Notes under the pieces: model-generated
Told to the model about the DNA's origin: nothing
The model's database searches: none
What the model saw: the letters and a program-made list of their open reading frames with translations, nothing else
NCBI GenBank assembly: GCA_000165345.1
Contig: CM000430.1
Span: forward strand, 640,001-704,000
Length of the DNA stretch: 64,000 bases
Direction: 5' to 3'
Part shown: piece after piece, positions 16,497-23,111 of the stretch
Layout: each line of letters opens with the position of its first letter
Numbering within the stretch: the stretch's first letter is position 1
Translations under genes and position numbers: made by a program

Positions 16497-18533
16497 TTAT
16501 TGCTGATATGACCATGGACCAAATTTATTTTTCTGAATTTCCTTGCATTTAATACTTAATTCCTTCAAGTGATCCTTGTTGATACTCTTAATCAGCAACG
16601 TTTTAGTAATATTCAAAAGTCTTTCCAATGAAGACTTTAGCTTGTCCTTAATTTCATATATGCTTTTGCTTGGAGTTTGTCTTTTTGTGATTCCAACTTC
16701 CTTATTGTTTTTATTACAAGAAGAACTATTATAAGTATTGTTAGTACTAGTAATATCAACAGAAGATTCCGGTATAGAGCTATGATCGCTTTGTTCAAAA
16801 ATACTTGTCATTATCCCATCATAGTATTCCTTATATCTTGTAATGATTTGATTGTTAACGTCAGTTTTTTTAGTAAAACCAGCTTCCAAACTTTGAGAAG
16901 GCTGGTTTTGCTCGGGAATCAAACGATTTTCGCAAGAATTCGACGGATCAATACATTTTAAATCATCATATTGAGAATCTGCGATTGTACTGTTTAAAGC
17001 AGGCTTCTCTTCATCCTGTTCTTCCTTTTCCTTTACTTCGTCATTGTCTAAAAAATACTCGAAGCTTTGCATATTCAAATCAGTAGAATTTATAGGTATA
17101 CTATCTCTAATCTTGTGATTATCATCTTTGAAAAATTCAATGCAATCATAAGAGGGATTGGATGAATATTTGAGCTCCATTTCTTGGATATAATCAACAT
17201 CCAGATCTATTTCAAACTGAGATTCTGTGATAAGTTCACTCCATACATGAGGTAAAGAAATTATATTAGGATCATTTGTTAGATTACCATGATTTACAAC
17301 ATTATAATCACCAGAATCATTTATTAAATCTGAATCAGGAAATCCAAAGTCATTACTTTTGTGGTTAATATTATTATTGTTAGTATTATTAGAAAACAAT
17401 GTATTAAAGTTATTAAAGAATCGAATTACATTACTTTTTCCTAGTTCATCTTTGATATTCAAAAATACATTTCCAAAGATTCCATTCTTAGTTGTTGGAG
17501 TTGAGTATTTGATTGCATTCATAATATCTGCAATATCATTTGAATAAAGTATATTGGATTCAATTCTTTGAAGCCTATATAATATAAGTTTATATAATGG
17601 AACCCAACCTTGCTGAAAGAAATCATCCCAAAATTTTCCTATGATATTTAAAGGTATACTATATGAGAAAAGAGTTAGAAACCAATCAGTAGCTAACATA
17701 TCTATAGTGCCTCCCTGTCTAATAATATGATCCCATATAATATGTAATTCTTTTTCCATTAATTGATTCAAAATTAAACATTTGACTCTTAATCCCGGCA
17801 ATCCTGATACAAACATTTCTCTCATGCCGTAATTAAACATTAAAGAAACCAATAATTCAAATGCCTGTTCTTCACTACTTGAATGCCAAAGTATACATCC
17901 AACTAAAAAATTCATACCTTGTACATATCCAACATCTATATCCATCAATGAATATATTAACAAAATCTTACTCAAGTAACTTTTACCTTCAAATTTGAAA
18001 TAAGAAATTGATGGATACGTCCTACATACATCCATATATATACTATTCATTACTCTATTACTAAATATTTTATTTATTACACCATTTTCTGTCAAATCTA
18101 TTTCAATTATATCGCTTCCCTCCATTCTTACAATGTACTCGACTATATTTATTAATTCTCTATAAATGGTTGTCAATCCTAATTCATTAGATTTCGAAAC
18201 CTCTAACCAATTCTGCATTCTCACACATCTTCCTTGATTGTCTTTATCACAATCACAATGAGGCCCTACTTTATCAAGCTTTAGAAATCGAACAAAACTA
18301 AGTCTTTTTCTATCATTTGTTTTTTTTCTCAAATCCGAATTTAGGCATCCTGGTTCTTTCGTATTCGTCTCCTCTTGCTTCTTCTCAAATCCTGATTCTG
18401 ATTCAGAATCAGATTCTACTTCATTCTTTGATGGCTGCATTTCTTCTACATTATTCAATGAGGGAACAAAATAATTATATGCTTTTTTCACTGCTAGCAA
18501 GGTCACAATATTTGTTTCCTCTTTCAATTCCAT
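16497..18533 (-). CDS. TBC-domain Rab GTPase-activating protein (678 aa).
   Basis: ATG at 18533 verified. TBC signature motifs are present: IDVGYVQGMNFLVG and the arginine-finger region; ...DWFLTLFSY... Confidence 0.85.
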   Translation of the reverse strand: MELKEETNIVTLLAVKKAYNYFVPSLNNVEEMQPSKNEVESDSESESGFEKKQEETNTKEPGCLNSDLRKKTNDRKRLSFVRFLKLDKVGPHCDCDKDNQGRCVRMQNWLEVSKSNELGLTTIYRELINIVEYIVRMEGSDIIEIDLTENGVINKIFSNRVMNSIYMDVCRTYPSISYFKFEGKSYLSKILLIYSLMDIDVGYVQGMNFLVGCILWHSSSEEQAFELLVSLMFNYGMREMFVSGLPGLRVKCLILNQLMEKELHIIWDHIIRQGGTIDMLATDWFLTLFSYSIPLNIIGKFWDDFFQQGWVPLYKLILYRLQRIESNILYSNDIADIMNAIKYSTPTTKNGIFGNVFLNIKDELGKSNVIRFFNNFNTLFSNNTNNNNINHKSNDFGFPDSDLINDSGDYNVVNHGNLTNDPNIISLPHVWSELITESQFEIDLDVDYIQEMELKYSSNPSYDCIEFFKDDNHKIRDSIPINSTDLNMQSFEYFLDNDEVKEKEEQDEEKPALNSTIADSQYDDLKCIDPSNSCENRLIPEQNQPSQSLEAGFTKKTDVNNQIITRYKEYYDGIMTSIFEQSDHSSIPESSVDITSTNNTYNSSSCNKNNKEVGITKRQTPSKSIYEIKDKLKSSLERLLNITKTLLIKSINKDHLKELSIKCKEIQKNKFGPWSYQQ

Positions 18534-19294
18534 TAATTTATCGTCAAAATAACTTTATTTCTCTTCTTTATAAACTTCCACTAAGTCTATCCATTTGCCA
18601 CTTCTTTCTTTTCGTACTTTTTTTAATCTTCACACATTAATTTTACTACTGAATTTAATAGTCATATTTTCCCGCCTTTTGCCAGTTAAATATGATGGCA
18701 ATAATGAGCACACAAAAAAAAAATGTACAGTAATGATTAGAGGCTTAATAGCTTTTGAATATTCATGAAAGTATTTATCAAATTTTTTTTTAAGTTAATA
18801 TGAGATCCTAAATTGTATAATAATTTACTTTTACTGAAGTATCAAAAAATGTCTAGTGGTGATAGAATGAATTCACATTAATTTAAAAAATAGCAAAGCT
18901 AGTAATACTGGGAATGGAAAGGGAATAAAAAAGAAGAGGGAAGGGCTCATAAATTGTTTGAAATAAAAATATGAATTAATTCTGTCGAATTGTTATCGCC
19001 TATTCTCTGTTTTCTTAAACAAATATATTAAAAAACAAAGAAACTTACAAAAGTACTGTTAGCTTGATTGATTTTATATTCGATTTTGTTCTTTAATTAT
19101 CAAAAGTGGTATTAAATAGAAGGTAATTTAAAACTGTTAATATGCTAATTCTATTTACTGAAATTCAGCCTTTTTTTCCAATAATATAATGTTCAGTATG
19201 TATGCATTACGCACCGGCGGCAATTTAATTGTGCATGTATTGACTATATTATACCATGTGGGGCGGCAAATGAGTGCAGAAAGGAGGAATAGAA

Positions 19295-20574
19295 TCATTT
19301 TGAATATTTATGACAGTTCATAACTTGTGCTAGAAAGGCTTCAATATGCCATATATCTTTACTTCCAAGCTTTAATGTATGAGCGTAGTGTGCAGCAGCA
19401 TTAATAATGATTGGTTGAGCACTGGCAGAAACAATTGATAGTAGCTGTTTAGTTAATGTAACAAGAATCAAATCAGCTGGAATACAGCTACATAACAAGT
19501 CGTATAAAGGTTCTCTTACATCTAAAAGCGTTTTTGGATGAGGGTTTTTAACAATCTGAGTTTAGAAATAAAAAAAATGTTGGTTAGAGGTTTTGGGATG
19601 GGAAATCAAATAAGAAATAAATTATATATATTCAAATCTTGGAGGTTTTTGTAGGAAACTTACGCTAGTGGCAATATCAATGCAAACCTTTTGCCATGGA
19701 AGCTTCAAAGCACTTGGAGGATTTGAAAAAGATTGTGTATGAGCAGTTTCTAATATTAGAATTGCTCTTCTTAAATTACATTCAGATTCTGTAACTATTT
19801 GTTCGAGATAATTATTAGGTACTTGAAGATTTTCAGAATTAGAAATAAATCTCAAAACTTGAAGAACCTCCTCAGGAGAAGGTAAAGGCACCCTAATACA
19901 TAAACATCGGCTTCTTAAGGGTGGAATGATAGATGATAACTGTTCACAATGTAATATTAATCTACTGTTATTTGAATACTTTTCCATAGTCCTTCTTAGC
20001 CCTGCTTGAGCCTTTAAAGATAAGACATCAGCCTCCAGTATTGTAAATACACGATAATTTGGGCCTTTAGAAAAGAATGAGTTGGCTCCCATTTGTGAAC
20101 TTAGTTGCTTAATTAAATATTGTGTAACTATGCCATCCTTCGTACCCAAATCTGGTGCACTAATCTGCATATGATGGGGGCTTTGGCATAAAACAAATTC
20201 ACTATTTGTTCCTTCTGGTTTTATCATATCTGCTTTAACCTATAAAAAAATTACTCTAGTAAATCGTACTATAAAGAAAATTATTATTATTGCTTTACTT
20301 TCCTTCTCAATTCAACTCTCAGTTCAAACAATAATAATGGAAATATTGTTAATTACAATTTCTCCCAACTTACCTTATCTACTGAATCTCCAAAAATTTC
20401 GTGCAGAACTGATGAAATTCTTACTTTTTTCCCTCCCCCTGAAGGGCCGTAAAAAAGCAAATGTGGAATATTACCATTTGAATTTGAAGTAATCTTTTCT
20501 AATAAACTATTTAGTTCTTTGTTGCACTTCAAATCCCTAAGATATCGTGGCTGGTATTTATCAATCCAAAGCAT
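19295..20574 (-). CDS. RFC3: Replication factor C small subunit (RFC3/RFC38-like), three exons: 20574..20374, 20239..19664 and 19555..19295.
   Basis: The three track ORFs (73, 201 and 67 aa) align collinearly with RFC3: PHLLFYGPSGGGKK Walker A, then LRRTMEKYS...SRC, then the C-terminal LGSKDIWHIEAF. Donors are AAG|GTAAGT at 20373 and AGC|GTAAGT at 19663. Acceptors are T-tract+TAG| at 20240 and CTAAACTCAG| at 19556. All junctions are phase 0, with in-frame stops just inside each intron. Confidence 0.85.
19556..19663 (-). other. Intron 2 of the RFC3 gene (108 nt, GTAAGT...CAG).
   Basis: See the RFC3 evidence above. Confidence 0.75.
20240..20373 (-). other. Intron 1 of the RFC3 gene (134 nt, GTAAGT...TAG).
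   Basis: See the RFC3 evidence above. Confidence 0.75.
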
Positions 20575-20654
20575 TTCACAATTTTTTTTCCTCTTCTTTC
20601 TGAATATTTATTTTATTTCTGTTTATATATTTCATTGGTAAATTCCCATTCCTG

Positions 20655-20668
20655 TTTTTGGCGCCAAA
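20655..20668. promoter_or_regulatory. Palindromic E2F-type site TTTTTGGCGCCAAA about 85 nt upstream of the RFC3 ATG.
   Basis: Read directly from the sequence. E2F sites upstream of DNA-replication genes are the classical arrangement. Confidence 0.5.
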
Positions 20669-21136
20669 TACGCCTCACATTACGCTGGTACTTATTAATT
20701 TCAAGTCAGACAATATTATTTGGTTGTAAGAGAGAAATAGATCAATAAAAACAATAATTGATTTAATATTTAGGATGGAACACATCTAAACAAAGTAAAA
20801 CTAAGCATTAAAAGAAAAATAAAGAAATAAGAGGAGGTTTTGGTCTTCTCAAAGCTCCCACTTTTCCTCCTAATATCCTCTCATTCATTAAAAATATTAT
20901 TTTTATCAAATAATAAAGCCAACCTCCAATATAGATATATACAATAGTATTATAGTAATAACAATAACATGCAACTTAATAGTAATAGTAATTTTGTTTA
21001 TAGTGGCAGTCAATAAAAATATATTTTATATACAGTTAATTTGGCGCTCATAAATTACATGCATGCATGCAATCTTGCCAAAATCCAAAAAATTTTGAAA
21101 TATAATTGTTATTGGAATTATAAAATATAATATTAA

Positions 21137-22213
21137 TTAAGATTGCTGGTTAATCTTGCTATTTTTACAAACATTTTCATCATTATTGCTATAACTTTCA
21201 ACATTTAAGTTTTTATTTGGATTTTCAGTTAAAGAAATCTCTTGGGTAAGAGTTTCTCCAGATGTATATTTGGTGATAAAAGGATGTTTGAGCATATCAG
21301 CAATAGTGATCCTGTTTTGAGGTAATTTTTGTAGTGCTGAATGAATGAATCCAACCAAAATTGGAGACCAGTGAGGTGAATATTCGGGCTGTTTGTTTTG
21401 AATCAAGTAGTACTGAACATTATGCCCCTGATTTGAAGGAAAAGGAGGTTCACCCTTAACTAGCTCATAGCATAAAACTCCCAAAGACCAAATGTCTACT
21501 TCTGGTCCGTACTCTTGCTTCCTAGTGATCTCTGGCGGGAGGTAATCGTAGGTCCCGCAAAATGTTCTCCTTCTACTCTTGTTATTGTTAATATGTGAAG
21601 ACCAACCAAAATCTGCAAGCTTGAGTTGGCCATCCACTCCTATCAAAATATTTTCAGGTTTTATATCTCTGTGAATAACATGTTTCCTATGACAACACTG
21701 AATAGCTTCAATCATCATCTTCATATATCTTGCAGCTTGGTATTCCTTGAGTGGCCCATCTGTACACAACTTTTCGTAAAGCTCTCCACCTGGAGCTATC
21801 TCTATTACAAGCCAAATTCTGCTCTTATCTTCAAACCATGCGTAGAGTTGGAGGATATTTTCATGCTTTAAATGCGCCTGAATCTCAATTTCTCTTCTAA
21901 CTTGAACTTCCATCCCGCTCTTTACGAGATTCTTCTTCCTAAGTACTTTTAAACCAACAATATACTTTGTTCTTCTTTCTCTTGCCAAATAAACTGACCC
22001 AAATTGGCCACTACCTAACTTTCTACCAATATCGAAATCTGAAATACTTAATTCTGGGCAGTGCAAAGGACATGCTAAAGCCAAATCTGAGATTGAATAC
22101 ATTCTTGGAGCTCGTAAATATGGTGAATTTCTTCTTATGACCCTGGTTGTTGTCATTCTCTTTTCACTTCCATTCATCTCCTCATTTATTGCCATTTTTG
22201 TATGCTCTGACAT
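21137..22213 (-). CDS. Aurora-family Ser/Thr protein kinase.
   Basis: The track start at 22219 is GTG; the first ATG is at 22213. Motifs: GxGxFGxV, VGLKVL, HRDIKPEN, DFGWS (the Aurora signature) and CGTYDYLPPE. Confidence 0.9.
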   Translation of the reverse strand: MSEHTKMAINEEMNGSEKRMTTTRVIRRNSPYLRAPRMYSISDLALACPLHCPELSISDFDIGRKLGSGQFGSVYLARERRTKYIVGLKVLRKKNLVKSGMEVQVRREIEIQAHLKHENILQLYAWFEDKSRIWLVIEIAPGGELYEKLCTDGPLKEYQAARYMKMMIEAIQCCHRKHVIHRDIKPENILIGVDGQLKLADFGWSSHINNNKSRRRTFCGTYDYLPPEITRKQEYGPEVDIWSLGVLCYELVKGEPPFPSNQGHNVQYYLIQNKQPEYSPHWSPILVGFIHSALQKLPQNRITIADMLKHPFITKYTSGETLTQEISLTENPNKNLNVESYSNNDENVCKNSKINQQS

Positions 22214-23111
22214 TTTCACAGTTCAATCTGTTTTAAATATAATTCCTACCTGCTATTGAAATTCAACAATTAATTCTCTTCTTCCACCCAACATACAACA
22301 CCACTTCAGTTTATTCTTCACCTATTTGTCTCACCACCCCCTTTCAGTATAGGGGAATTAAGAGAATTATAGCTTTTCTTCTACCCTCTTATATTTTCCT
22401 CCCACTCGGTATTAATTCTTTCTTTCTTAGTTTCTTTCTATATACCACTTTAATGAGAATATGGCACTCTTCTTTGTTCTACTTTATCTCAAATCTTTAA
22501 CTCTGTAATTACTACAATTCTATATTTTCCCTTCGTTCCTACTTTTTTTTCCTTATTCTCCATTCAATTCACCCCACATAATATTCGAACTTATTTCCCG
22601 CCTAGTTTCTTATGCATTTAATATTATTTGTTAATTTTCACGTTTTTAATTGTAAAATGCAATAGTTACTCTACATTCTTTTCTTTTAGTAGCTCTCCAT
22701 AATTTCTTTTCCTATTAACATTTTTCTAAAACCTAAGCAATTTTTGTGGTTATCCTTGTTTTTATCATTTTTTTTTCATGGCTTTGGTTCCTCAATTTTT
22801 GCTTTTCCCCCACCTCACATTTAAACTAGCTGCTTCAAGTTCTATTCTAATTTTGCATGTTTTACCGCCAAAAAGTTTAAAGTTCATTTTATTTAGAAGT
22901 GGACTGGCGGTATAATGAAATCGTATTTATTTGAGATTGGGAGTAATAAAATTGAGGGGATGAGAATTCAGTTGAACTGAGATAAATATTTGCTTTTTTT
23001 TTCTAAAATTGAGTGTTGATTTACTTATTTTGCCCAAATAAGCAGGCCTCTTGTGTTAAGAAAAAAGATTTAATAAATTGGTCCATTGGGCTGTTTTATC
23101 ATTAAGAAAGA

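Follow-up and report, generated by a model that had tools for sequence, protein, structure and literature searches.

A three-exon replication factor C subunit gene of Cryptosporidium parvum with a predicted E2F-type element in its promoter

Introduction

Do three separate but collinear reading frames on one strand of a compact genome encode a single spliced subunit of the clamp loader, and does a palindromic site in front of them say how that subunit is transcribed? The small subunits of replication factor C (RFC) form, together with RFC1, a pentamer that loads PCNA at primer-template junctions. In a 64-kb stretch of DNA, the whole of which is called the window here, a mechanical list of open reading frames includes 20353-20574 (73 aa), 19622-20227 (201 aa) and 19295-19498 (67 aa), which are collinear on the minus strand. 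A first-pass annotation of the window took the three for pieces of an RFC3-like gene with two short introns that ORF-level annotation had missed, and read the upstream site as the E2F control expected of a replication gene. Here we examine the gene model, the identity of the product, its conservation across Cryptosporidium, and the upstream elements, and weigh the readings that they allow.

Results

Gene model

Read on the minus strand, the 1280-nt span 19295-20574 resolves into three exons and two short introns, and the joined exons form a 1038-nt reading frame encoding a 345-aa protein, close to the length of about 346 aa first proposed. Exon 1 (20374-20574, minus strand; 201 nt, 67 codons) starts with the ATG at 20574, specifies the Walker A loop and, at the N terminus, the MLWIDKYQP motif, and pairs with human RFC3 residues 3-68. 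The remaining AAA+ module, with the Walker B LEAD box and the SRC motif, and the lid domain are encoded by exon 2 (19664-20239, minus strand; 576 nt, 192 codons). Exon 3 (19295-19555, minus strand; 261 nt, 86 codons and the TGA at 19295-19297) encodes the C-terminal helical collar domain and pairs with human RFC3 up to residue 344.

Intron 1 (20240-20373, minus strand; 134 nt, phase 0, 24% GC) extends from a GTAAGT donor to TTTTTTTATAG, with an acceptor of the form T7-ATAG in which a T-rich tract is combined with TATAG. Intron 2 (19556-19663, minus strand; 108 nt, phase 0, 27% GC) extends from a GTAAGT donor to CTAAACTCAG, its acceptor being T8-ATTTCTAAACTCAG, a T-rich tract with CTCAG. GT-AG boundaries, the donor consensus and pyrimidine-rich 3′ ends are thus present in both, and the phases, splice signals and coordinates given in the first-pass annotation all agree with the sequence. 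An in-frame stop was also said to lie just inside each intron; read-through meets one after 6 codons in intron 1 (VSWEKL and stop) and after 13 codons in intron 2. The hexamer GTAAGT occurs 21 times in the window, counting both strands, and exactly twice in the gene span, where the two copies are the two donors and mark the points at which homology breaks off.

Introns are found in about 10.8% of C. parvum genes and have a mean length of 99 nt and a mean GC content of 22% (PMC4637869). Both introns of this gene are near these means in size and GC and so are typical for the species. The evidence-based IOWA-ATCC annotation, for which RNA-seq support of 100% of the introns is stated (PMC8744675), contains the same gene model with the same splice sites. 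A 30-mer spanning the exon 1-exon 2 junction had no exact match in metagenome contigs, where C. parvum cDNA is not expected, and an Rfam search of 18500-21200 at a permissive E-value found no RNA family in the introns or the intergenic spacers.

Protein identity and domains

In a comparison with all PDB chains, the spliced product has its best matches, both of full length, to human RFC3 (6vvo_E, residues 2-342/345; E = 4.3e-67, 230 bits) and to yeast Rfc5 (7sgz_E and 1sxj_E; E about 1e-65, 224 bits). No clamp-loader chain other than RFC3/Rfc5 exceeds 101 bits; among them, the remaining eukaryotic RFC subunits stay at or below 97 bits, each matching in two stretches. The full-length alignment bears out the claim that the three reading frames are collinear with RFC3; moreover, the alignment of the spliced protein to RFC3 orthologues that had been proposed as a check runs end to end with no gap at either junction (E about 1e-67).

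Pfam places a DNA_pol3_delta2/AAA module ahead of the lid domain PF21960 (RFC1/5-like; aa 194-233, E = 2.2e-13) and of PF22534 RFC_C ('Replication factor C subunit 3, C-terminal domain'; aa 249-338, E = 4.8e-22), the latter two above their curated cut-offs. The Walker A loop GPSGGGKK (aa 43-50; 20425-20448, minus strand) has the orthogroup form GPSGxGKK, the Walker B acidic box ILEAD is at aa 134-138, and the SRC motif with its arginine finger, S177 R178 C179, is read directly at 19904-19912 on the minus strand. Residues and Pfam domains together give the order of Walker A, SRC and C-terminal helical domain that was expected.

We aligned 13 sequences, comprising other apicomplexans, a chromerid, a plant, fungi and transcript-derived sequences, some of them apicomplexan. 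In this alignment the P-loop residues G43, P44, G46, G48 and K49 are invariant, as is R176-S177-R178-C179 among the 13 orthologues, and both exon junctions (…SVDK|VKAD… and …IATS|IVKN…) are free of gaps. A short deletion of 3-4 residues follows the VKAD motif, next to the first junction; it is common to all apicomplexan orthologues and is thus not a splice-site artefact. Codon 51, which follows the P-loop lysines (20422-20424, minus strand), encodes Val (GKKV) in C. parvum, C. hominis and C. canis. C. muris has Ala at this position, and Thr is the residue in C. xiaoi, in C. felis and in almost every other eukaryote. Relaxation at residue 51 would fit a non-catalytic nucleotide site. Judged by its sequence, the protein is an orthologue of human RFC3 and yeast Rfc5, and every sequence feature by which membership is assigned is present.

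Conservation across Cryptosporidium

The proteins from Cryptosporidium that a homology search returns carry the name 'replication factor C subunit 5' and have 73-94% identity. Exon structures were solved so as to reproduce the deposited proteins of C. parvum, C. hominis, C. canis, C. xiaoi, C. muris, C. ubiquitum and C. meleagridis, and the C. felis gene was rebuilt. Intron 1 follows aa 67 in phase 0 in C. parvum and likewise in C. hominis, C. meleagridis, C. ubiquitum, C. canis, C. xiaoi, C. muris and C. felis, so that the 67-codon exon 1 is found in eight Cryptosporidium species, and intron 2 keeps its phase-0 position after aa 259 in all eight. Lengths range from 52 to 147 nt for intron 1 and from 62 to 108 nt for intron 2, with donors that are mostly GTAAGT. 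Conservation of the exons across the genus, with intron sequence and length drifting, is the pattern to be expected of genuine spliced introns in a functional gene.

Fragments of the gene circulate in public records. The C. hominis TU502 RefSeq entry XP_667252.1 (201 aa) corresponds to the exon 2 reading frame (window 19622-20227) running into intron 2. The C. felis entry KAF7457504.1 (274 aa) begins at an internal Met of exon 2 and is without the Walker A exon; the C. felis contig JABXOJ010000026.1 carries an intact exon 1 of 67 codons at 2196-2396 (MLWIDKYQPRY…SVEK), and its GTAGGT donor, used with an acceptor TTCTTCAG ending at 2488, restores the DK|VKAD-type junction. Run-assembly (Logan) cluster proteins of 73, 69, 197, 201, 218 and 226 aa are likewise fragments, from various Cryptosporidium species. 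These Logan members were considered as possible spliced transcripts and rejected: all are ORF fragments entering intron 2 (…ATSVS…), as in genomic contigs and not in cDNA. As was remarked, intron-containing genes are a minority in this genome, at about 11% of genes; that ORF callers easily break them up is borne out by these records.

Deposited records, synteny and expression

An exact-sequence look-up shows the spliced 345-aa product to be identical, residue for residue, to EAZ51404.1 (C. parvum Iowa II); identical 345-aa entries include QOY42912.1 (C. parvum IOWA-ATCC) and CUV04675.1 (C. hominis), among others. The deposited loci have the same 1280-nt gene span and are flanked, as in the window, by genes for glucose-6-phosphate isomerase (PGI), a protein kinase and RabGAP-TBC, and a 7.3-kb stretch around the gene matches C. 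parvum CP044421.1 and CP029781.1 with 100% identity. The gene is cgd2_3180 on C. parvum chromosome 2, 'replication factor C subunit 5'. The description of the gene as missed accordingly holds for the ORF-level track, in which it is split, and not for GenBank, which has the exact product for both C. parvum and C. hominis. The cgd2_3180 RT-PCR primers (PMC3305300 supplement) map uniquely within exon 2, at 20072-20092 (minus strand) and 19987-20008 (plus strand).

By RT-PCR, the cgd2_3180 transcript is close to zero at 2 h and reaches its peak at 6 h; after a dip at 12 h, it increases once more from 24 h. Another RFC subunit gene, cgd3_3170, has a similar time course (PMC3305300). The same-strand neighbours of cgd2_3180 behave differently from it: cgd2_3190 peaks at 12 h and cgd2_3170 is late (PMC3305300). 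Since the time course of cgd2_3180 is unlike those of its same-strand neighbours, an independent promoter in the 562-nt spacer is favoured; production as part of a polycistron with the upstream kinase, as the main mode, is argued against by the differing cgd2_3190 and cgd2_3180 RT-PCR courses.

The kinase gene itself, cgd2_3190 (21137-22219, minus strand), has annotated N-termini that vary, with products mostly of 335-374 aa and one of 916 aa in C. felis, and an N-terminal extension exceeding 300 residues is described in a kinome paper. The model of this gene may be unsettled.

Upstream elements

The E2F-type site TTTTTGGCGCCAAA occupies 20655-20668, 81-94 nt upstream of the ATG, in keeping with the distance of about 85 nt originally given. 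Within it lies a perfect 12-nt palindrome of the E2F/DP type, TTTGGCGCCAAA (20657-20668, 83-94 nt upstream of the ATG), which matches the palindromic E2F/DP form TTTSGCGCSAAA at 12 of 12 positions. This palindrome may fall within the 5′ UTR and not ahead of the transcription start.

Counts over the window exceed those in shuffled sequence. The palindromic site, allowing at most one mismatch, is observed 3 times (0.16 expected) and TTTSGCGC 7 times (0.43 expected), and no shuffle reached either count. Of 15 TTTSSCGC sites in the window, 14 fall in non-coding DNA, which makes up one third of the sequence. The GGCGCC core, at 20660-20665 in the window, is found between -82 and -100 in C. parvum, C. 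hominis, C. meleagridis, C. ubiquitum and C. canis, in surroundings that diverge. In C. felis the site is TTTGGCGCC at -141 and in C. xiaoi TGGCGCCA at -244, and C. muris has a half-site only, at -105 (GCGGCAAA / TTTGCCGC). Perfect 12-nt symmetry is seen only in C. parvum; the flanks differ in C. hominis (CTTGGCGCCAAA). Enrichment over shuffles, non-coding bias and conservation of the core together indicate that the E2F-type element is real and under constraint.

Two further elements share this spacer. An ATGTGAG block (20674-20680, minus strand) is situated 5 nt from the palindrome, on its 5′ side, in C. parvum. In an alignment of the upstream regions it is invariant in C. parvum, C. hominis, C. 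meleagridis, C. ubiquitum and C. canis while its flanks diverge; compared with published E2F, G-box and AP2 motifs, it matched none. A distal half-site, also E2F-like and reading GCGCCAAA on the gene strand (21040-21047, about 466-473 nt upstream of the ATG), lies some 90 nt beyond the stop codon of cgd2_3190, the aurora-like kinase gene. It is kept between -455 and -490 in these five species, in the form TTTGCGCGCCAA in C. canis and C. ubiquitum. This distal site may either serve the RFC promoter or mark the 3′ end of the kinase gene.

In a crude gene set for the window, 8 of 23 genes have an upstream site, including those for RabGAP/TBC, the aurora-like kinase and PGI. Further E2F-like sites, TTTCCCGC / TTTGCCGC, at 18668-18675, 19263-19270 and 22594-22601, precede the RabGAP/TBC gene (16497-18533, minus strand) or occupy the spacer from which the genes for the kinase (ATG about 22213) and PGI (ATG 23112) diverge, a sign of the motif's generality in this genome.

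Discussion

We are highly confident that cgd2_3180 is a three-exon, spliced RFC3/Rfc5 orthologue with a predicted E2F/DP-type GGCGCC element in its promoter. Transcription would most likely start in the 562-nt spacer between cgd2_3180 and the upstream aurora-like kinase gene cgd2_3190, with the conserved GGCGCC element about 90 nt before the ATG as the likeliest predicted site of activator binding. Splicing of the two phase-0 GT-AG introns would then yield the 345-aa AAA+ protein. By orthology, this protein is expected to take the 'E' position of the clamp-loader pentamer and so to complete RFC and the alternative clamp loaders, and with RFC1 and the other three small subunits it would load PCNA onto primer-template junctions. 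Its SRC arginine finger would be predicted to act on ATP bound by the adjacent subunit, and its own site would probably hold a nucleotide in a largely structural role and not use it catalytically.

What the palindrome says about regulation is a separate matter. C. parvum encodes E2F and DP proteins (PMC3734150, bioRxiv 10.1101/2025.01.17.633476), the E2F proteins being cgd1_1570 and cgd6_1430, and the palindrome is present with a conserved core, so this much of the original proposal of E2F control stands; as an argument for control specific to replication genes, the site is weak, given that the motif is over-represented upstream genome-wide. The E2F-like motif 3 is the most over-represented upstream motif in the C. 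parvum genome, and its over-representation extends to 114 of 200 expression clusters, with any peak time and with ribosomal-protein clusters included (PMC3734150). An E2F motif is also dominant in sporozoite ATAC-seq peaks (bioRxiv 10.1101/2025.01.17.633476). Together with the non-coding bias of TTTSSCGC and the one-third or so of window genes that have such a site upstream, these observations tip the balance slightly towards the view that the palindrome belongs to a generic kind of promoter or open-chromatin element in Cryptosporidium and carries no cell-cycle or replication-specific information. Against so general a reading, cgd2_3180 and the other RFC subunit have the 6 h and 24-36 h pattern in common, and an earlier study, as described in PMC3734150, found E2F-like motifs upstream of DNA-replication genes. 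A generic element would, moreover, still be compatible with function at cgd2_3180, where the core keeps its position in five species. On sequence grounds, the predicted site is consistent with transcription of cgd2_3180 driven by E2F/DP and is not diagnostic of replication-specific control; in Cryptosporidium the GGCGCC element would probably act as a general promoter or open-chromatin motif.

A more elaborate arrangement can be imagined, in which the palindrome, the ATGTGAG block and the distal GCGCCAAA form a specific composite module, distinct from generic E2F-motif promoters, that sets the 6 h and 24 h timing, or in which the two conserved phase-0 introns with their early in-frame stops serve stage-specific intron retention. 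We regard this as improbable. More doubtful again is the proposal of a functionless palindrome, a GC-rich hexamer that arose by chance in an AT-rich spacer. In its favour, only one short site is involved and the perfect symmetry is peculiar to C. parvum, but motif counts far above those of shuffles, the strong bias towards non-coding DNA and a core conserved in five species amid diverged sequence make such an origin very hard to credit. Least credible, and largely refuted, is the suggestion that the three reading frames are joined otherwise or not at all, through alternative sites, regulated intron retention or decay of a fragmented gene, because, although full enumeration gives 26 frame-preserving GT...AG combinations across junction 1 and fragment models have been deposited (XP_667252.1, KAF7457504.1), only 20373/20240 combines GTAAGT with a T-rich acceptor, the invariant DKVK and a match to seven species, retention of either intron brings an early stop and the loss of essential domains, exons retain 73-94% protein identity across the genus as introns drift freely, and deposited evidence-based models use the same sites.

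Publications and deposited records already cover the gene with its name and exon structure, as well as the class of E2F-like motif to which its upstream site belongs. What the spliced three-exon model of cgd2_3180 adds is an example for quality control, in which ORF calling of the bacterial style splits the intron-containing genes, about 11% of the total, of a compact genome. A truncated RFC subunit would pass into any orthology table or drug-target list compiled from the fragment records, and the fragment models of this gene found elsewhere are an only mildly useful by-product of the analysis.

Comparison with known systems places the locus at three levels. At the level of the record, it is cgd2_3180 itself, with the same gene, protein, span and flanks, and only the ORF-level track splits it. 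At the level of the promoter, its counterpart is C. parvum 'motif 3', DTTGSCGCCH or 5′-TGGCGCCA-3′ (Oberstaller et al. 2013, PMC3734150), to whose consensus TTTGGCGCCA is an exact match, and the upstream intergenic placement is alike, as for hundreds of C. parvum genes; the cgd2_3180 site differs from motif 3 in extending to a perfect 12-nt palindrome, similar to the complete E2F/DP site of metazoans, TTTSGCGCSAAA. At the level of the protein, human RFC3 (6VVO chain E) and yeast Rfc5 (1SXJ and 7SGZ, chain E) have the AAA+, lid and collar domains in the same order as the C. parvum protein, and share with it the non-canonical GxGKK P-loop and the invariant RSRC motif. Identity to these proteins is about 40%, and the C. 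parvum subunit departs from them in the deletion of 3-4 residues after VKAD and in the replacement of the P-loop Thr by Val.
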